Source: Candidatus Bathyarchaeota archaeon (GTDB taxonomy: Archaea; Thermoproteota; Bathyarchaeia; Bathyarchaeales; Bathycorpusculaceae). From it: a DNA stretch of 64,000 nt. Below the pieces are notes generated by a model. That model had not been told where the DNA came from, ran no database searches, and saw only the letters and a program-made list of their open reading frames with translations. Numbering within the stretch: the first letter of the stretch is position 1; every line of letters starts with the position of its first letter. Below are positions 17,915 through 48,991 of the stretch, piece by piece. The stretch covers positions 512,001 to 576,000 of the forward strand of contig CAWHXY010000007.1 of the NCBI GenBank assembly GCA_963833575.1. Direction: 5' to 3'. Both the position numbers and the translations under genes were made by a program.

Positions 17915-18163
17915 ACAGACATGCAGGTTAGTCTAATTTTTCCAAACTCGATAATAAACGCGCTGCTTGAACTGCTATAACAAGTGGCTCTACTTTTTAG
18001 GCATTTTATTTGTGATATAGCATAGCGCGCGCAATATGTTGCATGTATAGCCTAAAACGAGTAAACACTTGTTGCCTTCTTTTGAGAATGATTAACCACA
18101 TTTACCTTAACCAACCTTAGTAGTCCGCCGTCGTGGTCGTCGTAGTTTGGTTGGTTGGATTAA
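17915..18163 (-). repeat. ~250-bp non-coding repeat, inverted homolog of 22953-23200
   Basis: Shared in order: TTAATCCAACCAAC..ACGACGACCACGAC, GTGTTYACTCGKTTYAGG, AGCGCGTT, AAAAAAT..TARCCTG. Confidence 0.7.
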
Positions 18164-18369
18164 GATTTAGTCCACACACACAAACGACCTCTCAGAAGAT
18201 TATGTGGTATAGAACCTACTGGTGTAGGTTAAAAAACAATAATCCTTTCTTGGGTATGGTATTGGTAGGTAGGTATGTAGGTAAAAATAATGTATGTGCT
18301 AACTAAAAGTTAAGGCATACATTTCAACAGGGCATACATTTGTTAAAGAAAACAAAAAGAAGGAAGATG

Positions 18370-21721: not shown

Positions 21722-21886
21722 TTATTTAGCCAACCGGTTTTGCCTTATCCCACTGACAGTTGTTGTTTTGCCTGCGCCGTTCGAGCCGAGGAAACCGAAG
21801 ACTTCGCCGTCGTTAACATGCAGCGTAAGGCTTCCAACAGCTGCAAGGTTGCCGAGTTTTTTTGTCAGGTTCTCTGTGCCGATCAA
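21722..21886 (-). pseudogene. Truncated ABC transporter ATPase (N-terminus only)
   Basis: ENLTKK.G...[22 protein letters not shown], then an early stop. Confidence 0.85.
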
Positions 21887-21909
21887 TTTAACATTACCAG
21901 ACTTCTTTC

Positions 21910-22090
21910 TTACTTGTAGGCTAATTTACCGTTTAGTTCACTTTGGGGGGGCAAACGAACAATAAAAGTTGTTCCTTTACCCTCTTGGCTCTCAAAAGTT
22001 ACGGTGCCTCCTAACGATTCGGTCATACGTTTAATTACTGCTAATCCGAAGCCTTGACCCTTAGGCTTTAGTTGAAAACATGGGGATAAA
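21910..22090 (-). pseudogene. Histidine kinase HATPase_c C-terminal fragment, frameshifted
   Basis: LFIPMFSTK / KGQGFGLAVIKRMTESLGGTVTFESQEGKGTTFIVRLP. Confidence 0.85.
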
Positions 22091-22208
22091 CAATTTATTT
22101 TTAGCGCGCTTTGGTTAAGTATCCTGATTGTGGGAAATTGAGAAGCCTGATAGGTTACTTGAGGTTAAATATCAGAAAAAAGAATAGCAACCATGGAAGG
22201 TTAAGAAA

Positions 22209-22859: not shown

Positions 22860-22939
22860 AAACATTGTTTCCAATAATCCCTCATCTGATGCGGTAGTAT
22901 ATAAGCAATTTTGAGTTTCGTATATTTCATAGGGAGGAG

Positions 22940-23200
22940 GGATTAAAAAAAATTAATCCAACCAACGACGACCACGACTACCGTTTACCATGTTACGTTT
23001 CTAAAAAATAACAAAGTGTTCACTCGGTTCAGGTAACACATATCATACAAGGGTAAGGTATAGTATATGTAGTGTCGAAATCGAGTAAACACATCAAACT
23101 ACAAAAAATAAGAAAAAATAAAGGAAAACAAGAAAAACGAGCGCGTTATCCAACATTTAGAAGAAAAAATAAGCATTAGCCTGAAAGAATCTATGATGTT
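22940..23200 (+). repeat. Non-coding repeat with GGATTAA-N6-TTAATCC core and ~80-nt imperfect hairpin
   Basis: GTGTTCACTCGGTT pairs with AATCGAGTAAACAC; homologous to 17915-18163. Confidence 0.7.
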
Positions 23201-23373
23201 TTAGGCGCGCGCAAACAAGTATGCAACCTCTAAAGAAATAAGAGTAACGTTAGAAAGCTGACTTTACACTATTCAATCAGCCGTTTTGGGGTAATAACTT
23301 GCCTGAGTTTGAAAGGCTGTTCAGCTTGCACTTTTAGAGTTAAAAAGAGTAAGCCAGTCGCCTGTGACTGCGA

Positions 23374-25988: not shown

Positions 25989-26336
25989 TTAGTCGCTGAG
26001 TTTCTCTTCGAGTTTCCTCGCTTCTCTTTGAATCTGTTCTTGAGCGAATGCAATTAACAGACATAAGCCGTTATTTTCCACACACATTTCGCTATCTTTT
26101 AGCGAAATTGCCTTATCGTAAAAGATATTCTCGATTTCTTCTTCAGCATCTGGTTGCAACTTTAGTAACGATAAGTCAAGGTGCGTTTCTGCAAAGGGAA
26201 ATCTCTCTTGCAATTCTCGAAGTATTGTTCTTTCTTCGCACAGTTTTCTGGTCTCTTTCAATGGCATACCTTTTCCTTTGTCAACGAGCATGTTCAAATT
26301 GAAAGTTAGATAGGTCAATAGTTTTATTTTTACCAT
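25989..26336 (-). CDS. Hypothetical protein
   Basis: 115-aa ORF with upstream GAGGT. Confidence 0.55.
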   Translation of the reverse strand: MVKIKLLTYLTFNLNMLVDKGKGMPLKETRKLCEERTILRELQERFPFAETHLDLSLLKLQPDAEEEIENIFYDKAISLKDSEMCVENNGLCLLIAFAQEQIQREARKLEEKLSD

Positions 26337-26395
26337 TTATTGAACCTCTAAAAGCAGTATTTCAAAGCGATTATTAGTTTATTTATCTTCATGCT

Positions 26396-26560
26396 TTAGC
26401 ACGCAACATTTAAAAAATTAGACTTTCGTTTTTCGTCCTTCAAAACGAACTTGTAACATTCACAGTTAGGTTTAGTACATACTCTATCTAAAAAATATGA
26501 ATGTTCACTTTTAAGATGCCCACACGTGCACATTCCATCTTTAATTTCAGCTTTATCCAT
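26396..26560 (-). CDS. 54-aa Cys/His-rich putative metal-binding protein
   Basis: MDKAEIKDGMCTCGHLKSEH...CTKPNCECY; below the ORF-track cutoff. Confidence 0.55.
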   Translation of the reverse strand: MDKAEIKDGMCTCGHLKSEHSYFLDRVCTKPNCECYKFVLKDEKRKSNFLNVAC

Positions 26561-27230
26561 CAAGATTTATCCTTATTAAATAAACAACTTTAGCCTCAAA
26601 AGGTTTTAGGTTTGGATCTCCTTAACTTTTAATCCCACACACACCGACCTACCTAACGTTCAGGTGTAATGGTAGAGGCTACTCGTGTTGAAAAAAATAA
26701 TAATAACAACATAGTTAGGTATTGGTATGAGCAGTAAGAAACATAATAAAACTTCCCTGTCAATCATAAAATAATGTTATCAGGGGTAAAAAATAATAGA
26801 AAACTTGTCCCTCATAAACTAACAAATAATTAAGAATTATGTTAGGATTTCCTGCGATAATTATGCTGCCCATTGATTTTTAGTATTTTGTTTAAGCACT
26901 GTTTTTCTTCTTTGAATTGTCAGCTTGGGTCTGTCTCGAACGGTTGGCGTTGGCTTGCTTCTGTCTCGAACTATTGGCGGCATTTGCTTTTCTGGCTATA
27001 CTGCTCCTGTTTGGAGAGGTCGTATTTCCTTCTGGTCTTTGTTGTTTACGCAAAACATTCAACCAAAATTATATAGTACTTTGTTCTTAATTTGTCTTAC
27101 ATTGAGTGCCCGAAATGTGTAATTTTGAGTTTAGCCTCATGTACAAGCCGACGTTGATTTAAAAGAGATTGTTGCTCAAACACGCTCAATCTACGCTTAA
27201 ATCATCCCTTAACCCTCTATTGGCGATAAA

Positions 27231-36548: not shown

Positions 36549-36739
36549 ACGGCCTTTTCCATTTATTCATGTGGTCTAAATATTTCGACGTTATCAGAAT
36601 TTAAAGATTTTTCTTCGTCTTTTTTGGCAGGTCCGGTAATGAAATCATCTTTTTTTTCGGGGTTAACCACGGTAACTGCTGTAACTGTTTATCGACAGTC
36701 ACAAACGTTGAAATAATCTAAAGAATAGAGAGCACTAAG

Positions 36740-37795
36740 ATGTTTATGAAAGCTTTTGTTATGAAGGAAATAGGCAGTGTTGGATTCATGGAGAAGCCTG
36801 TCCCTGAGGTTGGACCAAACGACGCGATTGTCAAGACAAAGGCAGCGTTAGTTTGTACATCAGATTCACATACCGTACGTGGTGCAATTGGACAACGTAC
36901 AAACATAACTCTGGGACACGAAGCAAAGGGCATAGTCTATAAAGTTGGAAGAGAAGTGAAACTCTTTAAGCCCGGTGACAGAGTTGCGGTCGGCGCTATA
37001 ACTCCTGACTGGGGAGATATCGCTTCTCAAGCAGGTCACTCATCCCAATCTGGCCAACCATTGGACGGATGGAAATTTTCCAACACCAAAGACGGCGTAT
37101 TTGCAGAGTATTTTCACGTAAACGAAGCCGACGCGAACATGGCCAAGATTCCTGACGAGGTGCCTGATGAAGCTGCCGTTTACGTTTCAGATATGATGTC
37201 AACCGGGTTTGCTGGCGCAGAAGCCGCTGACATACCGATAGGGGGTTCTGCAGGGGTATTTGCTTTAGGACCAGTGGGTCTTATGGCTGTTGCTGGAGCC
37301 AAATTCAAAGGAGCAGGAATGATAATAGGCGTTGATTCAGTACCTAAACGACAAGAGCTTGCCAAGTTTTATGGTGCAGATTTGACGGTTGATCCAACTA
37401 AGGAAGATGTCATATCTAGAATAATGGATCTTACAGCGGGGTTGGGCGTAGACAGCTCAATTGAAGCGCTTGGCGCAGATTTAACCTTCGAGAATGCTTT
37501 AAAAGTGACAAAAGCAGGCGGAACAATATCAAACGTTGGCTACCATGGAGTAGGCGAATGCGTTTGCATTCCCAGATTGGACTGGGGTGTAGGCATGGCG
37601 GAAAAAACCATCAAAACTTCACTATGTCCAGGAGGACGTTTAAGACTGCAAAGGTTGCTGTTACTACTAAAGAACCATAAAATTGATCCAACACGCATGA
37701 CTACCCATACATTCATCTTTGACGAAGCGGACAAAGCATTTGAAATAATGGACAAGAAACTCGACGGCGTCATAAAACCACTCATCAAGTTCTAA
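36740..37795 (+). CDS. adh: Zn-dependent NAD(P) alcohol dehydrogenase (secondary-ADH type)
   Basis: CTSDSHT, LGHE, GAITPDW, DMMSTGF, LCPGGR. Confidence 0.92.
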   Translation: MFMKAFVMKEIGSVGFMEKPVPEVGPNDAIVKTKAALVCTSDSHTVRGAIGQRTNITLGHEAKGIVYKVGREVKLFKPGDRVAVGAITPDWGDIASQAGHSSQSGQPLDGWKFSNTKDGVFAEYFHVNEADANMAKIPDEVPDEAAVYVSDMMSTGFAGAEAADIPIGGSAGVFALGPVGLMAVAGAKFKGAGMIIGVDSVPKRQELAKFYGADLTVDPTKEDVISRIMDLTAGLGVDSSIEALGADLTFENALKVTKAGGTISNVGYHGVGECVCIPRLDWGVGMAEKTIKTSLCPGGRLRLQRLLLLLKNHKIDPTRMTTHTFIFDEADKAFEIMDKKLDGVIKPLIKF

Positions 37796-37914
37796 GAAAC
37801 ATATATTGAAAAAATAGACCTACAAATTTAAGGTTTTAATTGATCCCTGTTGGTTCAAGTTTTTCTTATCTTTTTAGTGAAATGAGGTTAGTTTGAGTTC
37901 GAATTTGCAAAAAC

Positions 37915-38056
37915 TGGTTGGAGATTATGTTTTGTTTTTGAAATCTGCCAACCATTTTAATGTTGAGTGAGAGGTAGGTTTGAACCTGGGTGACTGTCAA
38001 GCACTATGCCGACTCGGGTAGCAAACAACTTTGGTGCAGAGAACCACCTTTCTCAC
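37915..38056 (+). other. Bulged hairpin followed by a three-way stem-loop
   Basis: TGGTTGGAGATT/AATCT-G-CCAACCA; GTGAGA/TCTCAC; ACCTGGGT/ACTCGGGT. Confidence 0.5.
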
Positions 38057-38218
38057 CTATCCTTTGACTACCGTTAAAGTTTAAGAATAAACTGAAGAAC
38101 AACTAGCTTTATATGCCAAAAAATATTGAAGGACTTAGAAAATTATACAGTAACAAATTGCTTTGGATAATTATGATGAATATTTGGTTTTTTGTTGTTT
38201 TGTTGCTGTTGACCAGAC

Positions 38219-38794
38219 TTAGAAGCATTTGTTGATTAGAGTGTAACAGGCTCTTTGGATGTTTCGTTTTGACTTTTGCAGCCCAAGTTCTTTGACTCTT
38301 TCCTTTATTTGGGGCCAACTCTTTGATTGTTCACCGCAATTCTTGAAAGCATACGCTAAATTCTTCTTATCAACGGGATATAGCGTTCTAATTATTTCAT
38401 CTTGAACCAGCAACCATTCACCAAGTTTTTCTCCGAATTTTTCTTCAACATAAGTTCTCTCCTTTTGAATTATCTTCTCGTGCCCACCGCCAATTAACAA
38501 TTCATAAACCTCATGAAAAACAAGTTCATGAAATGCTCGTGTATCTTCGCATCTTGTTAACCAAATTAACCCTCCAAAACGAATAGGATCCTCGTTAAAG
38601 TGGATTCTCACCCCATTACTTCCCCAAGCATAATTCTTGAAGTTACATTTCCACTCAGAACTTAATGGTTCAAAAACCTCGAACTCCTCAAGCTTAACAG
38701 TTTCTTTGCCGAATTTCTCTTTGATATACTCCATTGTTTCATTAATAATCTCAATTTCTTTGTCGGTTGGACTAAAGTAAGTTGTCACAATCAA
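38219..38794 (-). CDS. Hypothetical protein with HELVFHEVYE...H motif (metallopeptidase-like?)
   Basis: His/Glu cluster; AAGGAG RBS. Confidence 0.55.
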   Translation of the reverse strand: MIVTTYFSPTDKEIEIINETMEYIKEKFGKETVKLEEFEVFEPLSSEWKCNFKNYAWGSNGVRIHFNEDPIRFGGLIWLTRCEDTRAFHELVFHEVYELLIGGGHEKIIQKERTYVEEKFGEKLGEWLLVQDEIIRTLYPVDKKNLAYAFKNCGEQSKSWPQIKERVKELGLQKSKRNIQRACYTLINKCF

Positions 38795-39279
38795 GTCATC
38801 TCCTTACTATGCTTTCACTAGTTTCCGGTAATATCTTTGATATTTCAAATCGCGAAATATTCCAACTAAGAAATCATTCCTAAGCCAATTATGCAATAAG
38901 CCAGTCTAAAATCGAGAGGTAAGATTAGCTTCTTTTGTTATGTATTTGACTTTGACGTAGTTTCTATTTCAAAGCATATCGGGTTTTGTAAATCGTTCCA
39001 AAACCGCGCGCACCGTAACATCTTAACAACGCCTAGCTTTCAACTGCCCTACCAACATTACTTTTGAAAATCTTAGCGCTAAGTCGGAAAGCGTCTCTAC
39101 CAAAGTTCTTATTTATTTTTCTAAAATCTTGTCGATCGTCAGCAAACTTGGCAGGCAATTTCACGTTGACATACCATTTAGACACTTTGTTGCCTCTTGA
39201 AATACCAATAGGCAAAGAGAGTCTATTAACAAAATTATTATAATCCATGCTTCAATTAACAGTCACCAAGGTGTCAACG

Positions 39280-40047
39280 ATGAAACAATTCCTAATTACT
39301 CCAGCGGCAGGAAAACGCTTAATAGCCAAAACCCTAGCAAACCACCCAGCAATTAAAAAAGCCCTCAAAAACGGAACGCTCGTGATTGTTGCTGGAACAA
39401 CCAATGGCTATGTGGCTGAAGAAATTTTCAGAACTAACAATATCTCAAATGATTTCTCTAGGGGAAGGTTCTTTAGGGGGATAACTTTGCCGCCGACCAA
39501 GTCAGTAACCGTTGAGGGGAGGCTTGCTGACGAGAGCAAGTTTCCTGGCGACGTTGTTATAACTGAGGGTGTGTGGCAGAAAGGCAAAACAATTGCTGAT
39601 GTCGTTGATTCGCTTAAAGAGGGCGATGTTATCTTGAAGGGCGCAAACGCTTTGGATCTGACCCGTAAGCAGGCGGCTATTTTGATTGGTCATCCGAAAG
39701 CTGGAACTATAGGTTTAGCCTTGCCTGCCGTACTGGGGCGACGAGTGAAACTCATAATACCCGTTGGCATTGAGAAACGTGTAAACAGCGATTTGTCCGC
39801 CTTAGCAGAAAAGCTCAATGTTCCTGGTGTAGGCGGGTACCGTTTGTTGCCTGTTGTCGGAGAAGTATTTACTGAGTTGGATGCGTTAATTGCTTTAACT
39901 GGTGCTGAAGTTGAATTGATTGCTGCTGGTGGAGTTTGTGGCGGCGAAGGCTCCTGCTGGATAGCTGTAACTGGAAATGAAGAACAAGAGGAATTTGCCG
40001 CCGAAATTATTGCTTCAATAAAATGTGAACCAGCATTTAGTCTTTGA
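39280..40047 (+). CDS. Conserved hypothetical protein
   Basis: [32 protein letters not shown]. Confidence 0.75.
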
Positions 40048-40340
40048 CAAAACATTGCACGGCGTAGAAAATTTCTAAGTTTCAGGTCAAAACTTAAGGA
40101 TAACTTGTGTGGATTTATCAAATCACTGTATTGACAGCATTATTTGCGACAAATTGTAGCCACACTTTTGTTGTCACAAATATTTAATAGAAAATCTCAT
40201 CATTAGATTAGTAGGTGCGTCCTAACAATCAAGAAAGATAGTAGTAATTCAGAAATTCTATTTTAATCCAACCAACCAGATTTGCAAACAAGGGTTGAGG
40301 TTTGAGTTTGCATGAAGAAAATATAGTGTTTGAATACCTT

Positions 40341-41114
40341 TCAAACCGGTTTTTTCTTACCTTTGTTTCTCATTGCTCTGATACCAATGACAATAGTCTT
40401 GGCTTTTCCAGTCAGCCCTCCTCTAAAGCTGGCGTTAACCATTTCCCTATAGTCGTTTTTAGATATTGGTACGTCACTGATAGTTTGCATTGTTTCAGGA
40501 GATATAGTTCCATTAACCAACTCAGCACCAGCTTTTCTAATCGCGTCAATATTGTCATCAAGCAAATGCGGAACGTTTGCTGCCCCGGCAGACGGGATTA
40601 GAACTTCGCCAGCCCAGGTTAATCCCATATGCATCATAATCTTCTCAAAATGTTGACTCATTAAGGCGAAATTCTCCATGTCTGGAAAACCGCAAGTCGA
40701 AACTAAGACCCCTTTTGCCTTAGGTGCATACCGCTGAGGGTGATTAGTTATCCCATTATCCATTAGAATCTGAGAGGATTCCAAGTTTACAAAGAACCTA
40801 TCAATTATGTTTTTTACGGTGGCAGGAAAACCAAAAACGTACACGGGAGCTGCGATGATAAAGTAGTCACATTTTTTGTAAACGTCGTATATTAATTGAA
40901 AATCGTCTTTCTGGACACATTGACCTTTGTTTTTTCTTTGCCAGCAGCTCCAACAGCTTGTACAGGGTCCAATTTTCATTTTATGCGGATAAAACTTGTG
41001 AATTTCCACTTCACCCATTCCTTCAAGCAAGCGGTCTAACATTTTTTCAGTGAAAGAGGGGCTTCTGAGAGAACCCGATATAGCCAAAACTGTTGGGATC
41101 TTTTTGACAGACAT
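40341..41114 (-). CDS. NADPH-dependent FMN reductase / iron-sulfur flavoprotein
   Basis: ISGSLR, CTSCWSC...C, APVY...K..IDR. Confidence 0.88.
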   Translation of the reverse strand: MSVKKIPTVLAISGSLRSPSFTEKMLDRLLEGMGEVEIHKFYPHKMKIGPCTSCWSCWQRKNKGQCVQKDDFQLIYDVYKKCDYFIIAAPVYVFGFPATVKNIIDRFFVNLESSQILMDNGITNHPQRYAPKAKGVLVSTCGFPDMENFALMSQHFEKIMMHMGLTWAGEVLIPSAGAANVPHLLDDNIDAIRKAGAELVNGTISPETMQTISDVPISKNDYREMVNASFRGGLTGKAKTIVIGIRAMRNKGKKKPV

Positions 41115-41277
41115 TGTTCGTGACTTCCAAGTAAGTCAACTTATTTCCACTTTTTAAGTTTCCTTTTATTACCTTATTATGATCAAAACTACGCGTCCTT
41201 TTCATTCAAGGCTCAGCATACTTAATGTGCAATTTCAGGAAAACTATTGAGAACAATTGTGGGGTGTACATTAAAAC

Positions 41278-41427
41278 TTAAACCAACCAACTTTACTCCA
41301 CTCAGTACCACGAAAAATGGCTTATTCAGCAGTAGACCGACTCACCAGATACATAGAAACCATTTATCAGTGTAGAAAAGAGGAAAATAAAAATCATCAC
41401 ATGGGCATATTCGGAATCGAATATACG
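41278..41427 (+). repeat. Dispersed repeat (A box ... B box) upstream of blc
   Basis: TTAAACCAACCAACT ... TATTCAGCAG ... GGGCATATTCGGAATCGAATATACG. Confidence 0.65.
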
Positions 41428-41540
41428 ACTCTAACAAAAGTAGACGTTCCAAGAATACGCACTAAGAACAAAGAACAAGTTCTGTTTAGCCCCAGCTACC
41501 CCAAAAGCCTTAAGCTAATGCCACGCTTTGGAGTTATAGC

Positions 41541-41999
41541 GTGATTCATTTGTCTCTTGAAGTTGTACCGCATGTTGAGCTGGAAAAATATTTAGGCAAA
41601 TGGTATGAGATAGCACACCTTCCCGCAAAATTTGAAGAAGGCTGTAATGAAACCACTGCCACCTACACATTATTAAAAGATGGCAGCATATCCGTGCTCA
41701 ACCAATCTATAAAAAACGGCAAGATAAAACAGGCAAAAGGCAAGGCAAAAGTAGTTGATAAGAACTCTAATGCAAAACTCAAAGTAACGTTCTTCTGGCC
41801 GTTTTATGGTGATTATTGGATCATTAAATTGGGGAATGATTACGATTACTCTGTTGTAGGTACACCAAACCGCAAATATCTTTGGATATTGAACAGAACC
41901 CCACAAATGAATGACAAGCTATACTCACAATTAATAGAATACGCAAAGTCAAAAGGCTTCGAAGTAAACAAGCTCATCAAAACTCTTCAAAAAGCATAA
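41541..41999 (+). CDS. blc: Bacterial-type lipocalin (Blc) without lipoprotein signal
   Basis: YLGKWYEIA, KLKVTFFWPFYGDYWII, YLWIL.R. Confidence 0.92.
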   Translation: MIHLSLEVVPHVELEKYLGKWYEIAHLPAKFEEGCNETTATYTLLKDGSISVLNQSIKNGKIKQAKGKAKVVDKNSNAKLKVTFFWPFYGDYWIIKLGNDYDYSVVGTPNRKYLWILNRTPQMNDKLYSQLIEYAKSKGFEVNKLIKTLQKA

Positions 42000-42045
42000 T
42001 GCAAATACGTCTAAAAATAATACCCCAGAAATGTTGAATTAAATT

Positions 42046-42166
42046 TTGATCCCACCAACCCAACCAACTACTTTTACCTCAGCGGTTTAAGGCATAAGCG
42101 GGAGACACGGTTCAGTAAATACTCAGCAGATTAACCATATAGGGTATAGTCGGAATCGAGTATACG
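42046..42166 (+). repeat. Dispersed repeat (A box ... B box) downstream of blc
   Basis: TTGATCCCACCAACCCAACCAACT ... TACTCAGCAG ... GGGTATAGTCGGAATCGAGTATACG; ATACTC/GAGTAT hairpin. Confidence 0.65.
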
Positions 42167-42238
42167 CCATTTTTTGCTAATCCTGAATTGATTCTTAATT
42201 CATAATCCTTATTTGAGAATCTTCCAAACATATGAAAT

Positions 42239-42595
42239 ATGAAAAAGCTTTCGAAGTCTTTATTCATGAACGTGCCTGTAGAATCCTGTTATGACATAAT
42301 AAGGACAACTGACCCTTCTCGGTACGTAAGCGATTTAGTTAGTTTTTGGTCACTAGGTTTTAGCAAGGAAATTCCAAATGCTCTGTTGGTTTTTGAATGC
42401 AGAGACAATCAAGGGCGATATGTTATTACTGAGATTTCATTTCTTAAAACAACTGATTCCTCGTGCGAACTCACATTAAATTTCTCTTATGACCATATGG
42501 ATGGAAGATATTCGGGGTTAATTCTTACTCAAATAATTAATGGGTACACACTATTAGACCATGCATACAACATTGGAAAATCTACGAAAGGATGA
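42239..42595 (+). CDS. Hypothetical protein (SRPBCC-like pattern)
   Basis: S...NVPVE..YD N-terminus. Confidence 0.55.
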   Translation: MKKLSKSLFMNVPVESCYDIIRTTDPSRYVSDLVSFWSLGFSKEIPNALLVFECRDNQGRYVITEISFLKTTDSSCELTLNFSYDHMDGRYSGLILTQIINGYTLLDHAYNIGKSTKG

Positions 42596-42698
42596 AGAAG
42601 TTTTAATCCACCACCTCATCGTGGCTCAATTACTGATTACTAATTCCTAAAGCAGAAATAGCGTTAAATCAATTCGTCAATAGAACTAGGCGAACTGC

Positions 42699-43082
42699 TT
42701 GAGTGATGTAAAGAAACGTGGAAAGCAAATAATCCATTGTGAAGTGCAAGACGGAAAAGACTGCCCTCACCAAAATCGCCTTGTCTACGACGAGGCTTTC
42801 TATAAAGAAGTTAACGGAGATTGCTTTGATTATGAAAATGAAATGGGAAAGCAAATTTTGTTACATTTGCAAGATCTTACAAAGAGAGTTTATCGCAAAT
42901 GTCCAAATTGTGGGTCATTAATTCCAGAGATTGAGTTACACACTGAAGACAGGATATTCACTCTGACTTGCACGAAAATAGCGAATAGGAAAGGGAAAGT
43001 GATAGCTGAAACTGAATACGAACAGTTGAAAAAATATTTGCATAGCCATAACAAAAATCTACGCACTAAGAAAACAAACTGA
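42699..43082 (+). CDS. Hypothetical Cys-containing protein
   Basis: CPH, CPNCG. Confidence 0.55.
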   Translation: MSDVKKRGKQIIHCEVQDGKDCPHQNRLVYDEAFYKEVNGDCFDYENEMGKQILLHLQDLTKRVYRKCPNCGSLIPEIELHTEDRIFTLTCTKIANRKGKVIAETEYEQLKKYLHSHNKNLRTKKTN

Positions 43083-43230
43083 TGCAATTGTAATACAGTG
43101 ATAGTATAGTATTAATCGAGTGTACGCGAGGCTCAAGAGAACAAAAAAGAAAAATGAATGCAATAGGTCAGTTTCGCTAAGTAAACCTTATATTTTAGTA
43201 TTGAGTATTACGATATAATAGGTAATACGT

Positions 43231-44028
43231 ACGGGTAGGAAAAAAAGCATTTCTCTAATTGCAATTATAATCTTAGTGGTAAGCATTGGAGTTGTCTCAG
43301 CTGATCAAGCAGGCTTCATTACAATTAACATATTTAACAGTCCAGGACAAGTAGACGTTAACGCTTCAAATAGCACAATAACTCAGAATGTAACACTTAG
43401 TAACTCAACATTAAACCTAAATGTCAACGGTCAAAACATAACAATAAGCACACAACCGACTCCAACGCCCACATCAACACCTTCACCCACACCGCTTCCA
43501 GATGTTAAAGTGTCAATTCCCATTGGCACCTCTCCTACGTATTTTGCTCAAAATTACAATTCGACTTTGTATGATAATAATGGAGATGCGTATGCTGCTT
43601 TCTTTTACAGTTACTACCTTAATGATACAAGCATAAGCCAAGCGAGTTACTTCGCCAATTTCGCGGTTTCAGGGGAGGATTTTCAGTCGGCTAATCAGAC
43701 GGCTTCTGGTGTAGCAACAGTTGACGGAAAGGTTGTGCCCAGTTGGCACGTTTTAAATACGCAACTACTCTATGATAGATTCCGAAACGTCATTGAATAT
43801 AACGACGGCAATATTAATGGAGCAACCTCCACAAATAATACGCTTCTATCCACCCAAATAACAAATCAAATAGGCAAAGTCATTTCTATTGCTGAGGGTA
43901 TAACGATCCCTGGCAACTACTTCGTAATTACTTTGGATTTTCCAACACAATTGACACCTGACCAGCAACTTGTTCTTAACCAGATCATAAACGGTTACGT
44001 TATCTTAGAGCTTGGACTACCAGGATAA
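43231..44028 (+). CDS. Secreted Asn/Thr-rich protein
   Basis: Signal peptide GRKKSISLIAIIILVV extends upstream of the GTG at 43276; PT linker. Confidence 0.7.
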   Translation, partial: TGRKKSISLIAIIILVVSIGVVSADQAGFITINIFNSPGQVDVNASNSTITQNVTLSNSTLNLNVNGQNITISTQPTPTPTSTPSPTPLPDVKVSIPIGTSPTYFAQNYNSTLYDNNGDAYAAFFYSYYLNDTSISQASYFANFAVSGEDFQSANQTASGVATVDGKVVPSWHVLNTQLLYDRFRNVIEYNDGNINGATSTNNTLLSTQITNQIGKVISIAEGITIPGNYFVITLDFPTQLTPDQQLVLNQIINGYVILELGLPG

Positions 44029-44351
44029 TTGTTCAACTTGTTTTTTAATTAAAACTTAAAGCAAAAAAATTGAGTAAAGGCAGGCTTTATGAAGAATTAA
44101 TTCCAATTGAACAATTATCCTATAAAGGGTATATTACTCCTGAACTTGTAAATGCTAAAATAAAACAAATTTTAGATTAAGTTAAAAAAGAAATGTCGCC
44201 TTTCGTCGAAAAATGGGTCAATAAAGAAAACGAGTCTGATTGGAAAGCAACCTGTGAAGCTATGGACAAAAGAAATATGGCGAGAGAAAATTGGTTTATT
44301 AAATGGTTTGGTGAATAAAAGTCAATAAAAAAAAGAAAACTGTTTTTTTTA

Positions 44352-44552
44352 TTATTGGCCATGGTGCATCATACCCATGCCCATACCGCCTCCTTCTTTG
44401 CGTTTTGCCATCATGCCTTCTCGCCAATTCTGAATAAGTCCTGGTATTACATTGCTCATCATTTCCGTGTCCATTTTGATTAACTCCATTGCTGCCTGGT
44501 TGATTTCAAGCTCAAAAGTTAATTTTACTTTACCGTTCTTTTCTGCTTCCAT
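44352..44552 (-). CDS. Small Met/Gly-rich protein
   Basis: GGAGGT RBS; 66 aa. Confidence 0.65.
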   Translation of the reverse strand: MEAEKNGKVKLTFELEINQAAMELIKMDTEMMSNVIPGLIQNWREGMMAKRKEGGGMGMGMMHHGQ

Positions 44553-44774
44553 AAATCCACCTCCTCAAAATCAAAGTTGAAAACTGGCTTCAGTTATTTA
44601 ATTGGTTAACGATTGAATGTTTTAAAGTTAAGTGGCTGTGTCGATACAACAACAAAAGGTTTTATGAAAAATGACGGTTTTTCAGTAGATTGGAAAATTG
44701 GCAATGATCAAATTTTACAAATCTGCCTGAAATTTATCGAAGAATTTTTTAGCATTTGAATTACCAAAAAACAA

Positions 44775-45407
44775 TTAGTCAATTAGGAGTAGAGCGAAAG
44801 TTTCAGGGTTTTTAATGAAAGGTAAAGTGAATTTTATTCCGGCTTTTTCTGCTGTAGCTTTAACGTTTACGCCGACACCTTCTTCAGAATAACGCTTTGC
44901 CATTGGATGAATGCAGAGTCCTTTTTCCACATTACATTTTTCGCATAATGTGCATGATCCTGAGACCAGACCCGTTGCGAGAAGGTAGCCTTTTGCAGCT
45001 GCTATTTTTTCGAGCTGAATCACGGTTTCACGGAGTTTTTGAGCGTCAATTTTCCAGGCTGACCAAAAATTGTCAACTTTGGATTTTATCTCTTTAGGAA
45101 TAGTTGGGTCTTCAGTTTTTGCGAGGTATTTTATAAGTTCTGGTTCTGCTTGGGCTTGAGATTCAAATTTCATGAAGAGAGCGTAATGGTATTCGCTGAC
45201 GATTTTTCTAAATTTCTCAGGTGTAGGTGCGTAAGGTGGGCAAGCTAATGTTTTTCCATATTTTTCGCAGCCTAGTTGACATTTGAAAACAACACGCTCT
45301 TCGATAACAATTTTTTCCACAGGAATTATCTTTGCATCTGCTGCTCCCAATTCTAAAGCGTGTTTTCGAAGAAAATCAAAAGAACTCAACTCATTATTTT
45401 GTGTCAT
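44775..45407 (-). CDS. DUF2284 metal-binding protein
   Basis: KC..GC..YG....CPP, GSC.LC..C, E..G.NV. Confidence 0.85.
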   Translation of the reverse strand: MTQNNELSSFDFLRKHALELGAADAKIIPVEKIVIEERVVFKCQLGCEKYGKTLACPPYAPTPEKFRKIVSEYHYALFMKFESQAQAEPELIKYLAKTEDPTIPKEIKSKVDNFWSAWKIDAQKLRETVIQLEKIAAAKGYLLATGLVSGSCTLCEKCNVEKGLCIHPMAKRYSEEGVGVNVKATAEKAGIKFTLPFIKNPETFALLLID

Positions 45408-45419
45408 AAAATTCAGGCT

Positions 45420-46529
45420 TCAAGTGGTTTTTGTTTTTGATTTTTTTGGTTGGTAGACGCATGCTGGGTCTTGATTTAATGGGTCTTTTGAATAGATGAA
45501 TGCTCGAGCTCGGCAGCCGCCACAGATAGGTTTGAATTCGCAGACGCCGCATTTTCCTTTTAATTTGGTACGGTCTGCAAGTATCTTGATTTTTTCAGAT
45601 GTGCGCATTCGATCTGTGATTTGTTCAATACTGTCTGTTTTAATGTCACCGAACTCCAGGTTGAGGGGGGCGCAGGCGTAGGCTTTGCCATCTTCCAGAA
45701 TCTCGAGCCACTCATTTTTTACAAGGTTGTCACACATGCTGCAGGTGCTTCGCAGTAGCCGTTCAGGCTCTTTTGTTTTTAAAATTCGGTTATTGAACAT
45801 TTCATAGGGAACAATTAGAATTTTGTCTTTTACTTTTTTGTTCATTTCGTAGACTTCTTTAAGTTGTTTTTCTTTTTGCTGTGGCGTTGGTTCTAGTGGA
45901 CCTAGTAGTTTGAGTTGGTTTTCAACGTCTATGGGTTGGGGAATTAGGGAAGCTAAATGGAAACCGCGTGCTCCTAACTCAATTGCGAGTTCGATTAAAG
46001 CGGGAACTTCGTCAATAACGTATTTTGTGTTGATTACGCTGATGGCAAATTGAATACCGAATTTTTTGCATAGCTTTGCGGCATTTATGCTGTCCTCAAA
46101 GGCAGCTTCACCTCGCAGTTTAGCATCGGTTTCTTTGAGCCCTGAGAGGCAGACAATAGCTTTGCAATTGGCGGCGGCAAGTTCTTTTGCGACCTTTCGA
46201 TCAAAGTGCCAACCAGTAACTTTCACGTAAGGAGACAGACCTAATTCGGCAGCATAACGAATGAGCTCTATGAAGTCTTTTCGCATTAATGGCTCGCCAG
46301 TCCAGCCTGCACCGGTAATGAATAGGTTGTCTACTCCGAAATCTGCGGCTTTCTTAAGCATCGACTTTGCTTCAGCGGTGGTTAGTTCATTTGGAAGAGG
46401 TTTTCCATCTGAAAGACAAAATGCGTGTTTAACTGGATAGGCTCTGGTGCATGACCAAATAAAATGGTCTAATTTTCTGCCATGTTTTTCGGCGCCAAAA
46501 ATTAATTTAGATTCTGACTGCGAAGACAT
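45420..46529 (-). CDS. Radical SAM/SPASM-like protein with degenerate CxxxCxxC
   Basis: ELTT.EA, GEPLMR.D and SPASM CGVC..ICGGCRARA...DP.C, but WSCTRAYPVKHAFC. Confidence 0.8.
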   Translation of the reverse strand: MSSQSESKLIFGAEKHGRKLDHFIWSCTRAYPVKHAFCLSDGKPLPNELTTAEAKSMLKKAADFGVDNLFITGAGWTGEPLMRKDFIELIRYAAELGLSPYVKVTGWHFDRKVAKELAAANCKAIVCLSGLKETDAKLRGEAAFEDSINAAKLCKKFGIQFAISVINTKYVIDEVPALIELAIELGARGFHLASLIPQPIDVENQLKLLGPLEPTPQQKEKQLKEVYEMNKKVKDKILIVPYEMFNNRILKTKEPERLLRSTCSMCDNLVKNEWLEILEDGKAYACAPLNLEFGDIKTDSIEQITDRMRTSEKIKILADRTKLKGKCGVCEFKPICGGCRARAFIYSKDPLNQDPACVYQPKKSKTKTT

Positions 46530-47885
46530 TTAGTTTGCTCCCTTTCCAAGAGAATGTTGAGTGATTTCTTTTGTGATGTTTTTGGTGTGACCTGGAATCT
46601 CCATTTTTCCGCTTTTGTTAGGTTTCATCAAATCGTGAGTTGCGTTAACTAGTGTAGGAAGTTCAGACGGAGATTTGATGAATATAGCACCTTGTTTTCT
46701 CATCTCCTCCATCAGAGCTGTTGCTTTGCCAGCGGTAAAATCTCGACTTTCTAGGGGCACTTCATCGATGACGTAAGTTCGGATCCCCATTTTTACGGCC
46801 TCAAGTGCCGATTCCAAATTTGAGAGATTGCCGTACCCAAACGGAACAGAAGAGACAACAACAATAGCAGCTTTACTTATCATTTTTAGATTCGCATGTT
46901 TTGTCTCCTCAGTTATCGGCGAAAAAGGTGCCTCATTCACGTTAGGAATCTTGAGAAGCTCGGCGGTCTCATAGTCGGTGTCTAACATGTTAAGTACACC
47001 AGCTGTCACTTCATAGCCTTCGTCGACCAATGCCTTCATTACGACAGTTCCCGTTCCTGCTCCACAGATGACGTGGATCGAACAGTTACGCGGTTTTGAA
47101 GGTTTGTCAGGTGACAACGGAATAATATAGAGTGAATTCGTGACCAAGCTTTTTTTGACTAAGGCATCAACTTGGAATACGCTTTTTATGTTCTGGCTTG
47201 TCAACACTTCATCTAAAGTTCCTGCTGCAAAGACCGTTTTTCCCTTAAGCAATAGAGCTGAGCTACAGTAGCGTGCAGCCAAATTCAAGTCATGGATAAC
47301 CGCTAAAACGATCATGTGTTCTTTCAGGCACAGTTCCTTGACTAAGTCCATGATTTCTAACTGATTGACCATGTCCAAATGTGTCAATGGCTCATCGAGC
47401 AAGAGCACTTGAGGTTCTTGAGCTAAGGCACGAGCAATGACCACCCGTTGTTTTTCTCCACCGCTTAATTCATTTATAGGCCTGTTTGCGAGCTGCCAAG
47501 TGTTAGTCCGTTCCATTGCTTTCTTAACGATAGCCAGATCCTTTTCGGATTCCATCTGGAACCGATTCATATGCGGATTGCGACCCATTAAAACAATATC
47601 TAAAGCTGTAAAACTGAAGCCTATTGTGCTTTCCTGAGGAACAACAGCCATGTGTTTAGCGAGGTCGACACTTTTTATGTTGTAAATATCCTTCTTATCT
47701 AAAAGTATAGTTCCTTTGTAGGGTTTTAACGTTCGACTAATGCTTTTAAGCAAAGTCGTTTTTCCTGAACCGTTAGGGCCAAGGATGCCAACGAAGTCGC
47801 CCTCTTTAACTTGTAGGCTGACGCTATCCAAAATAGTTACTGAACCATAGCGGCACTCAATTCCATCCACGCTAAGTAACACCAA
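46530..47885 (-). CDS. btuD: Cobalamin/iron-chelate ABC transporter ATPase with C-terminal extension
   Basis: GPNGSGKT, LSGGE, LLLDEP, HDLN; HVICGAGTG domain. Confidence 0.88.
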   Translation of the reverse strand: MVLLSVDGIECRYGSVTILDSVSLQVKEGDFVGILGPNGSGKTTLLKSISRTLKPYKGTILLDKKDIYNIKSVDLAKHMAVVPQESTIGFSFTALDIVLMGRNPHMNRFQMESEKDLAIVKKAMERTNTWQLANRPINELSGGEKQRVVIARALAQEPQVLLLDEPLTHLDMVNQLEIMDLVKELCLKEHMIVLAVIHDLNLAARYCSSALLLKGKTVFAAGTLDEVLTSQNIKSVFQVDALVKKSLVTNSLYIIPLSPDKPSKPRNCSIHVICGAGTGTVVMKALVDEGYEVTAGVLNMLDTDYETAELLKIPNVNEAPFSPITEETKHANLKMISKAAIVVVSSVPFGYGNLSNLESALEAVKMGIRTYVIDEVPLESRDFTAGKATALMEEMRKQGAIFIKSPSELPTLVNATHDLMKPNKSGKMEIPGHTKNITKEITQHSLGKGAN

Positions 47886-47902
47886 AGTCCACCCAACCCT
47901 CC

Positions 47903-48991
47903 TTACAGTGAATAGCTTGTCTTTCTTTTCCTTAGCAAGTAGATAAAGAATGGGGTTCCAGCTAAAGCAGTTATGACGCCAACTGGCAACTCTGAAGCTC
48001 CTGTTGCAACTCGGGCTAAAGAATCACAGAGAATCAGGAATATGGCTCCCACAATTGCTGAAGTAGGCAGTAGAATTCGATGGTCAGGTCCGATTACGAG
48101 CCGTGTCATATGCGGAATGATTAGTCCAACGAATCCTATGACTCCGCTTATCGAAACTGCCGCCGCAGTTATTAAAGAACTTACAAGCAGAAGTATTTGG
48201 CGCACTCTCTCCGTGTTTACGCCTAAATGTTGGGCTGTGTCATCTCCCATCGCAAGCATGTTAAGATCTTTAGTGAAGAAATACGCTATGAAAATTCCTA
48301 CAAAAACAAATGGAAAAACCGCGTAAATATCTATCCAAGTGATGTTTGTAAATCCACCAGCTATCCACGCTACAATGCCTATTAGCGCTTTTCCAGATCG
48401 CAGTTCAAAAACTGTCTGAACAGCTAAAATAAATATATTTACAACAATACCAGAAAGAAGCAAGGTAGTTACCGGCACTTTGTTTCCAACTCGCGACATA
48501 AAATAAACCAGAAAGACCGTCAAGACGGCTCCAACAAAAGCGACAGCCTGAAACAGCCCCAGCCCCCAAACAGAGAGAGCAAGAGAACCAGAATATATAA
48601 CAGCCAAAGTATATCCCAAAGAAGCCCCGGCTGAAGCCCCTAAAAGATAAGAGTCAGCCATTGGATTTCTGAAGACGCCTTGATACATGACTCCGGCAGC
48701 AGCTAATCCAGCACCAACCAAGGCACCTGCTATTATTCGAGGAAGCCGAATTTGAAGAATTATGGTATCGTAATTATGCTTAAGAACGACTGCTGAGTAT
48801 TTTATGGACCCCCCAAGAAAAGGAATCTGCTTACCAAGTATGGTTAATATATCAGAAAAATTGATGGGGGCGTACCCTATGTTGAGGCAAAAAAAAGCGA
48901 CACCGAAGAATGCAAGAATTAGCAATAATAAGATTAGTTTCCATCTTGAGGAACGTTTTGAATATTTGAATTCTGCATTATCCGCAGTCAT
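47903..48991 (-). CDS. btuC: Cobalamin/iron-chelate ABC permease (FecCD)
   Basis: IRLPR, FRNPMAD, GVIGFVGLIIPH. Confidence 0.9.
   Translation of the reverse strand: MTADNAEFKYSKRSSRWKLILLLLILAFFGVAFFCLNIGYAPINFSDILTILGKQIPFLGGSIKYSAVVLKHNYDTIILQIRLPRIIAGALVGAGLAAAGVMYQGVFRNPMADSYLLGASAGASLGYTLAVIYSGSLALSVWGLGLFQAVAFVGAVLTVFLVYFMSRVGNKVPVTTLLLSGIVVNIFILAVQTVFELRSGKALIGIVAWIAGGFTNITWIDIYAVFPFVFVGIFIAYFFTKDLNMLAMGDDTAQHLGVNTERVRQILLLVSSLITAAAVSISGVIGFVGLIIPHMTRLVIGPDHRILLPTSAIVGAIFLILCDSLARVATGASELPVGVITALAGTPFFIYLLRKRKTSYSL

Follow-up and report, generated by a model that had tools for sequence, protein, structure and literature searches.

A stretch of archaeal DNA was found to carry a family of dispersed hairpin repeats, paired in a strand-specific manner and spread among the Bathyarchaeia, and we tentatively explain it as an undescribed repeat family whose members act as recombination seams, an account that is plausible but falls short of an even chance. 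The stretch analysed (hereafter the window) comprises 64,000 nucleotides (nt) of contig CAWHXY010000007.1 (C7:512001-576000) in the 2.75-Mb Candidatus Bathyarchaeota archaeon assembly GCA_963833575.1; coordinates are window positions unless a contig is named, and G, C and L numbers are our labels for genomes, contigs and loci. Bathyarchaeia are among the most abundant archaea of sediments and soils and are essentially uncultured. The initial annotation had noticed an integron-like run of single genes, among them the lipocalin gene blc, punctuated by two short repeats termed box A and box B, and had interpreted it as a cassette-type capture system with a new recombination site and a recombinase acting in trans. 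We found that boxes A and B are the two ends of a single modular element of 120-200 bases and that the island in which they lie is not an integron. As a description of the pattern the integron reading was partly right, since the locus is flexible, arrays are directional, seams fall at the repeats and the hairpin follows an attC-like logic; the defining integron tests that were run here failed.

The element begins with a 17-bp AT-rich palindrome (GGATTAAA-A/T-TTTAATCC), a 7-3-7 core flanked by variable simple repeats, which is followed by CCAA repeats and a variable stretch. Next come a 5' arm, reading GTATAC-NN-GATTCAG or, in a second subfamily, GTGTTYACTCGGTTCAG, and a further variable stretch with two conserved motifs, one G-rich and one TATAGGGTA-like, before the element ends in a 3' arm contained in box B. 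Box B is itself a small near-palindrome, and because a box-B-like repeat often stands directly upstream of it, this 13-nt motif is present three times, the 5' arm being able to pair with either of the other two. Twelve palindrome sites were detected at ≤2 mismatches, whereas 30 palindromes with shuffled half-sites gave a median of 1 and at most 4. Box A lay ≤260 nt upstream of box B in 43/57 genome copies and, among the metagenome matches listed, in 63/100 copies, while 14/57 and, among those same listed matches, 37/100 were 3' remnants with box B only; decayed and truncated copies are common.

In the window, the box B sites reported at 41403, 42142 and 43102 (43104-43125) were all recovered. 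The copy at 42142 served as the reference 25-mer, from which that at 41403 differs by 3 mismatches, and none of 100 shuffled sequences contained such a 25-mer. The third site, with 83% identity across 24 nt, is a 3'-terminal remnant. A weak box B proposed at 44126 is unsupported, since it was not recovered at ≤3 mismatches and falls within a small reading frame that codes for a protein in other genomes. For box A, the sites at 40263 (an exact 14-mer), 41278 (1 mismatch) and 42046 (2 mismatches) stood, whereas that at 42603 shares with box A only the first nine bases and ACCACC, differs from the palindrome at 4-5 positions and, failing a 3-mismatch cut, is weak; a further degenerate A-like site was seen at 44046-44062 (repeat D12, 83% identical to 41270-41293). 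Bracketing of blc by two A...B units (41268-41427 and 42036-42166) was confirmed, as were the one-directional nature of the run, in which all A and B copies are on the + strand together with four genes, and the description of box B as the 3' arm of an imperfect long hairpin, whose 5' arm we place at 42101-42115.

We asked how far the element extends by scanning the genome and its relatives, and the boxes were found to match well beyond the window, in the genus and in the clade. An exact 19-base box B searched against 185,579 species genomes gave 57 loci, of which 55 are in metagenome-assembled genomes (MAGs) titled Bathyarchaeota or Bathyarchaeia; the other two belong to one Sulfotelmatobacter MAG and one Chlamydiota MAG. 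The element is thus almost restricted to Bathyarchaeia. A 16-base core was present, at ≤1 mismatch, in 32 of 61 genomes of the genus, and the JGI metagenomes contributed at least 122 loci, with at least 114 unique copies. Copies number about 8-12 per genome and are divergent. Elsewhere in the same genome, box A, about 100-150 nt and box B follow each other at C4:113208-113372 and C4:215174-215384, and a copy at C4:325811-325989 lacks the 3' arm; the exact 11-base box-A core occurs only 7 times in the 2.75 Mb, and the clustering of box A in the window is real. Rfam returned no match at gathering score in the window or in 12 loci of relatives, and only chance-level matches at E≤10 within 40000-44600. 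Three motifs of the element had no occurrence in the searched literature, and nothing on the hairpin element was found in the literature on Bathyarchaeia mobile elements and cassettes. Genomic islands and lateral transfer have been described for Bathy-6, in passages that name no mechanism (PMC11697101). A viral origin was considered and rejected: matches in viral contigs were at chance level except for a real box B carried by a fragment of 9.9 kb and a palindrome in one provirus record, and neither of these two sequences gave a PF00589 match.

The elements of the run lie in an island that varies between species. We compared window positions 36700-48000 by blastn with 60 other genomes of the genus and retrieved the relevant loci. 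Two congeners have an empty site, with the flank matches 5 bases apart in G045 and 2 bases apart in G021, whereas G044 and G009 carry at the same spot another insert of 1.75 kb, consisting of a radical-SAM gene and an open reading frame (ORF) of 67 amino acids (aa); the site is thus empty or holds 2 or 6 genes, depending on the species. The gene for an FMN-reductase/flavodoxin-like protein recurs at other loci with 84-86% identity in G059 (3 copies), G070, G012, G002, G076 and G074, where the flanking core reaches 73-75%, and a second copy in the same genome (C7:672662-673456) is 83% identical. The blc gene is 80-88% identical in G044, G020, G016, G023, G010 and G068 (window 41418/41526 to 42005/42052), and at least 14 other genomes of the genus have the small ORF at 44070-44318 intact, 82-89% identical and at unrelated loci. 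Three orphan ORFs of 118, 127 and 250 aa had no DNA match in the 60 other genomes and were assigned to no family in Pfam and NCBIfam searches. Taken together, the FMN-reductase gene, blc and the small ORF are 80-89% identical at unrelated loci, compared with 73-77% for the flanking core in the same genomes. This difference is only suggestive of transfer, because genes differ in evolutionary rate; the differing gene contexts are the stronger argument.

Stretches shared between species were observed to start or stop at the boxes. The shared blc stretch ends at the box-A palindrome in 5 of the 6 other genomes compared and, in G068, just past the stop codon; after the blc of a seventh genome (L232) only the palindrome is found, and where box B is present the stretch starts about 12 nt after it. 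A module encoding a 228-aa membrane protein, shared by three species, starts inside box B; a 723-nt module that is 86-92% identical in six genomes, and is also found at window 26001-26631, ends 3 nt from box B; and the start of a 1.7-kb stretch that G113 and G002 share at 95% identity lies 10 nt ahead of box B. When the left flanks of box A were compared all against all, most shared stretches ended at -9 to +8 of the palindrome. The box-A ends are partly trivial, as BLAST runs through a shared motif, but the comparison still indicates that the palindrome joins unrelated partners, whose simple repeats are GT/AC, GA/TC or GGTT/CCAA. The expectation that breakpoints would coincide with the boxes was upheld in part: shared stretches do end at or inside them, but on different sides of box B, and blc is also found without the element.

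These observations suggest a model in which units build up, mainly with the same direction, at seams between the genes of flexible islands. Since the same conserved 20-40-base ends lie between unrelated genes in many genomes of the genus, the ends of the element could serve as portable homology and as fragile hairpins. Recombination at these ends would join and swap single-gene modules, which would explain why interspecies shared stretches start and stop at boxes, and the island at 40053-44321 would be one such mosaic. The repeats would then cause the seams rather than merely lie there, and a dedicated recombinase would be unnecessary.

Neighbouring elements proved to be directional. Among pairs of box B 250-2600 nt apart, 20/24 were direct, with 2 convergent and 2 divergent; two pairs of the direct class consist of near-identical copies within one genome. 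Where exactly one ORF lay between the two boxes it was co-oriented with them in 9/13 cases. Arrays with single-gene spacing were seen in the window, G070, G068, G002 and G011. The element is an independent module and not a component of each gene: of the element, other genomes have at most the palindrome in common with the blc unit, and in no case the CCAA repeats or box B, and blc lacks the element in 5/8 genomes (window included). Where box B does travel, its partner is the downstream gene, as in the 228-aa membrane-protein module and the G113/G002 stretch.

The conserved stem was examined for pairing. In an alignment of 27 sequences, in which box B was fixed by the search, 93% of the cells in the long stem are paired. 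Mismatches in the stem were G.T in 65 cases and A.C in 22 (144 elements), or 83 and 33 (165 elements); arms were picked on Watson-Crick pairs only, and picking that equated G.T with A.C scored like the control, with chance arms. The G.T excess points to a single-stranded hairpin, of RNA or DNA, on the strand that reads from box A to box B. One stem position holds A-U 21 times and G-U 6 times and nothing else, and the two subfamilies differ by matched changes in both arms. The hairpin at 23010-23100 folds with a z of -4.9, and the minimum-energy fold closes the long stem in 4 of 8 relatives folded. By contrast, the three island copies fold no better than shuffles (z -1.9, -0.4 and +1.3), and RNAalifold reported for the 27-sequence alignment a local box-B hairpin only and no covariation, which is not fairly assessable there because box B was fixed by the search.

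Such a stem would also be expected of a small structured noncoding RNA (ncRNA) gene of about 100-170 nt, transcribed from box A to box B, with the palindrome as its TATA box. In this RNA a variable 5' part would be single-stranded and pairing of the 5' arm with box B would close a long hairpin, and copies would simply ride on islands. We regard this as possible, though doubtful. The wobble tolerance on the box A to box B strand, the A-U/G-U position, the matched subfamilies, the fold at 23010-23100 and the stems closed in relatives would all suit it, and so would the choice that the 5' arm has between two pairing partners, the low copy number combined with high conservation across species, and the independence from the orientation of neighbouring genes, the element being able to stand alone between convergent ones. 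By eye, the palindrome resembles a TTTAAAT-type motif located 35-45 nt upstream of the tRNA genes of this genome, and since these tRNA promoters read AAAGC-TTTAAAT, likewise by eye, it could serve as a TATA box. The folding results of the island copies and of RNAalifold and the absence of an Rfam family speak against an ncRNA, as does the lack of a T-rich terminator consistently placed after box B. Moreover, 25-37% of copies (the metagenome part among the matches listed) are 3' remnants without promoter or 5' arm, and an RNA gene would leave unexplained both the 20/24 direct neighbours and the seams at the boxes. A tiny peptide on the reverse strand of subfamily-1 copies, noticed by eye, was rejected as well: its frame is lost between copies because the numbers of CAAC repeats vary by 4 nt, and one copy has no start codon.

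The position of the elements ahead of genes raised the possibility that they are portable promoters with a 5' leader or operator for the gene downstream of box B. Three box B copies of the window stand 73-150 nt ahead of + strand genes, co-oriented downstream ORFs begin 51-194 nt past box B in 21/28 cases, and a near-palindrome such as box B is of the type that dimeric regulators could bind. Yet the next ORF downstream of the element is co-oriented in 28 cases and opposite in 27, which largely refutes this reading, and some copies, such as that at 22925-23103, are placed between convergent genes. In addition, blc has a TATA-like motif of its own at about 41495-41540, which it keeps whether the element is present or absent, and the G.T tolerance of the stem argues against a purely double-stranded protein site. 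On the orientation counts, the convergent copy and the blc motif we ruled the promoter out, and would now assign it only a very small probability.

The bolder proposal, close to that of the initial annotation, is that the element is a functional analogue of attC, unrelated in sequence and acting as a folded single strand, at which a recombinase supplied in trans moves single-gene units; one of five tyrosine recombinases or an HUH enzyme could be the agent, and the arrays would be built in the manner of attC or Xer-dependent dif modules. The variable island, the recurring genes, the seams at boxes, the directional arrays and the strand-specific hairpin lend support to this interpretation. Direct neighbours and co-oriented intervening ORFs, single-gene spacing, identical modules in different order between species and the empty site in two congeners fit it well, and so does the fact that in several families, including blc in the window, L232 and L063, box B accompanies the gene downstream of it. 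The hairpin is attC-like in that two short helices are set apart by an internal loop of 2 nt, the terminal part varies in sequence and length and pairing is strand-specific, the threefold 13-nt motif is what might be expected of protein-binding sites, and the palindrome joins units with different simple-repeat flanks.

The evidence against capture begins with the enzyme. As the initial annotation stated, there is no tyrosine recombinase in the window: a PF00589 search of the genome gave five matches, all elsewhere (C6:133344, C1:827, C2:778, C7:19451 and C4:4201), the nearest on the contig being about 490 kb away. Nor does one recur beside the elements at other loci: a tyrosine-recombinase-like family occurs at 5 of 177 loci among the matches listed, near chance. 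No linked enzyme emerged from clustering of the neighbouring ORFs of 55 genome loci, where the largest family reached 4/55, and among the same listed matches the top family over 177 loci is a secreted beta-helix paralogue group (19 loci). The sole IS200-type Y1_Tnp match in the genome (C7:653945-654303) has an internal TGA, and the GC-rich hairpins on its flanks bear no relation to boxes A and B; no TnpB-type zinc ribbon (PF07282) was found; on these grounds an IS200/IS605 parent element was rejected. The geometry of attC is wanting too. To the letter, the claim that the sites lack attC ends is wrong, as box A contains ATCCAAC (40266) and ACCCAAC (42058), but it holds for pairs at attC spacing: no inverted RYYYAAC...GTTRRRY pair 45-141 nt apart was found on either strand of 40000-44400 (shuffle mean 1.09). 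Units are irregular, blc and the FMN-reductase gene also move without the element, shared stretches end on varying sides of box B, and there is no overall link between the orientation of the element and that of the next gene. The copy at 22925-23103 stands alone between convergent genes with no cassette-like gene, and no circular or deleted forms and no joints were seen in the reads of one DNA run, which assembled only to contigs of 150-270 nt. We consider gene capture of this kind unlikely; if true, it would mean that Bathyarchaeia of the Bathy-6 type have a gene-cassette system of their own, with one-directional arrays in chromosomal hot spots like 40053-44321.

Several points weigh against our preferred explanation of the repeats as recombination seams. 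A copy number of about 8-12 per genome, with divergence within the genome, is unlike that of repeats that spread in bursts. For no single element could a clean pair of filled and empty sites be found, the surroundings of other copies being mosaic too, so that mobility of the element itself is not shown, and the outer ends, where the flanks were read, have neither a terminal inverted repeat nor a target duplication. A functional RNA gene would equally be compatible with the exact identity of 19-22 bases over more than 55 species and with the TATA-like palindrome, whose distance is fairly fixed. Passive repeats do not predict 20/24 direct neighbours, which site-specific or single-strand mechanisms would fit better, and breakpoints at conserved repeats are partly a by-product of BLAST extension. 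Direct orientation of neighbours and the wobble bias keep the bolder readings alive, while the missing enzyme and the irregular units keep them unproven.

Among known repeats, those of the ERIC, BOX and Correia families are modular imperfect palindromes of 100-200 nt, intergenic, in either orientation, conserved within a clade and without a transposase of their own; they often lie at rearrangement points and can fold as RNA. Our element resembles these bacterial repeats, and REP, in kind, but it is archaeal, has far fewer copies, shows no terminal inverted repeat or TA-type duplication and has directional neighbours. It differs from miniature inverted-repeat transposable elements in that the palindrome and box B that form its outer ends are not related, no duplication was seen and the 8-12 or so copies per genome are divergent. 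REP/BIME-RAYT and IS200/IS605-derived elements have strand-specific single-strand hairpins and no terminal inverted repeats or duplications, and an orientation bias is expected of them; a strand-specific hairpin (65 vs 22) and direct neighbours (20/24) were likewise found here, whereas the left and right hairpins of the element are mutually unrelated, and the sole Y1 gene is interrupted and has other hairpins. Minimal mobile elements of Neisseria are different cassettes placed between the same two conserved genes and exchanged within one species through transformation and homology of the flanks. Between 39247-40047 and 44352-44552 the content likewise differs, here by species, with the difference that the internal seams carry a dedicated repeat family.

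The likeness to attC consists in an imperfect hairpin with conserved arms, a small internal loop, a variable centre and strand-specific pairing. An attC site is 57-141 nt long, shorter than the element, which adds an AT-rich palindrome and CCAA repeats and reaches 120-200 nt. As in integrons and integrase-less attC clusters, a one-directional and mostly single-gene array is found at a variable locus, in the window and, by the 20/24 direct pairs, elsewhere, and the genes are single, unrelated and often orphan. In contrast to integrons, there is no attC-spaced RYYYAAC...GTTRRRY pair and no integron integrase (IntI) nearby, the element does not travel with the upstream gene, and there is no overall link to gene orientation. 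Archaeal integrons have been reported (10.1101/2022.02.06.479319 / PMC9668308), and the available text of that paper (PMC9668308) contains no occurrence of the word Bathyarchaeota. In Acinetobacter plasmids, Xer-dependent dif modules are accessory genes bounded by short palindromic sites and shuffled between replicons (PMC6449649, PMC13141974). Discrete accessory modules at palindromic sites are common to both cases, and a recombinase encoded elsewhere in the cell, as for dif modules, is what has been proposed for our element. The pdif sites have the form 11-6-11 bp (28 bp) and alternate in orientation around each module, whereas the palindrome core of the element is 7-3-7 (17 bp), its neighbours are direct and its host is an archaeal chromosome.

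Whatever its mechanism, the element is a concrete marker by which island seams can be searched for in at least 55 species, and a candidate site for a clade-specific small RNA or recombination system. Should it be only a passive repeat, it would still be a useful annotation feature and a caution against calling such arrays integrons. The features of the island and the two further copies in the window are listed below.

Table 1. Features of the variable island and further copies of the element (window positions)
Feature	Position	Strand	Details
Variable island	40053..44321		4.27 kb, between conserved gene 39247-40047 (+) and conserved small gene 44352-44552 (-)
Box A, copy 1	40253..40276	+	exact right arm and CCAA repeats (40263-40276); left palindrome arm missing
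FMN-reductase/flavodoxin-like gene, mobile module	40341..41114	-	Pfam PF03358, E 6.8e-18
A-B element 1, long form	41268..41427	+	degenerate palindrome, CCAA repeats, decayed 5' arm, box B 41405-41426
blc lipocalin gene	41541..41999	+	Pfam PF08212, E 4.7e-49; NCBIfam Blc subfamily
A-B element 2, short form, best preserved	42036..42166	+	palindrome 42036-42052, CCAA repeats to 42068, 5' arm 42101-42115, box B 42144-42165
ORF, 118 aa	42239..42595	+	no family
Weak box-A-like site	42593..42612	+	no box B after it
ORF, 127 aa	42699..43082	+	possible zinc ribbon, no family; weak Zn_ribbon matches, E 0.03-0.13
Box B remnant	43104..43125	+	3' end of element only; no box A, no 5' arm
ORF, 250 aa	43276..44028	+	Pro/Thr-rich linker, no family
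Degenerate A-like palindrome	44046..44062	+	after the 250-aa ORF
Small conserved mobile ORF	44070..44318	+	83-85 aa elsewhere; in-frame TAA at 44178-44180 here
Full element, second subfamily	22925..23103	+	convergent intergenic region; box A 22953, 5' arm 23016-23032, 3' arm 23075-23092
Second-subfamily element without 3' arm	18011..18194	-	box A 18150-18163, 5' arm 18052-18068

Element 2 is 77% identical to an element of G023 (L067). The archaeal Blc protein aligns from position 28 of the profile of the bacterial outer-membrane lipoprotein and is therefore without the signal and lipobox part. In G044 (L059, C5) and G020 (L060, C99), blc has a tRNA gene on one side and, on the other, part of the 3' end of that gene in a second copy, as after integration into a tRNA, and a similar tRNA-like fragment was noticed near the IS200-type gene of our genome, at about C7:654590. 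The small ORF at 44070-44318 has a TTG start in the window and matches no Pfam or NCBIfam family. The radical-SAM protein of the alternative 1.75-kb insert (L053 in G044:C8, L054 in G009) is HemN-like, with 419 aa, and on both sides of the insert a 36-bp stretch of the conserved gene's 3' end is directly repeated (L053 2267-2302 and 4018-4053), which looks like an att-type scar with no integrase present. In most genomes of the genus the homologue of 39247-40047 is inverted and located on the other side of a DUF2284/radical-SAM/ABC block (window 36700-48000), reflecting either a rearrangement of the locus or paralogues.

ORFs for a 55-aa Cys-rich protein (26396-26563, - strand) and a 115-aa protein (25989-26336, - strand) form modules with an 87%-identical copy at C4:112488-113212; many genomes of the genus have these modules at 85-92% identity, in frequent cases immediately next to box A or box B. 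The octamer GCGCGCGC occurs 15 times in this genome of 40% GC, compared with 1-5 times for most octamers of the same composition. It is found at window 18025-18032 and 23205-23212 and at C4:114371, and in several genomes at truncation points of the element and at ends of shared stretches, one example being the end of a 96%-identical 417-nt duplicate (C4:113954-114370 / window 26712-27128). Window 21753-22103 belongs to a separate dispersed repeat of 150-190 nt and 76-86% identity, which relatives carry in numerous copies per genome (G045 has at least 10). Finally, tandem hairpins of the form GGGGTAA-(15 nt)-TTACCCC were observed at window 26730-26815, beside a box-A-like site at 26618-26640, and such hairpins also stand directly upstream of box B in G042 (L021/L249) and at L275.

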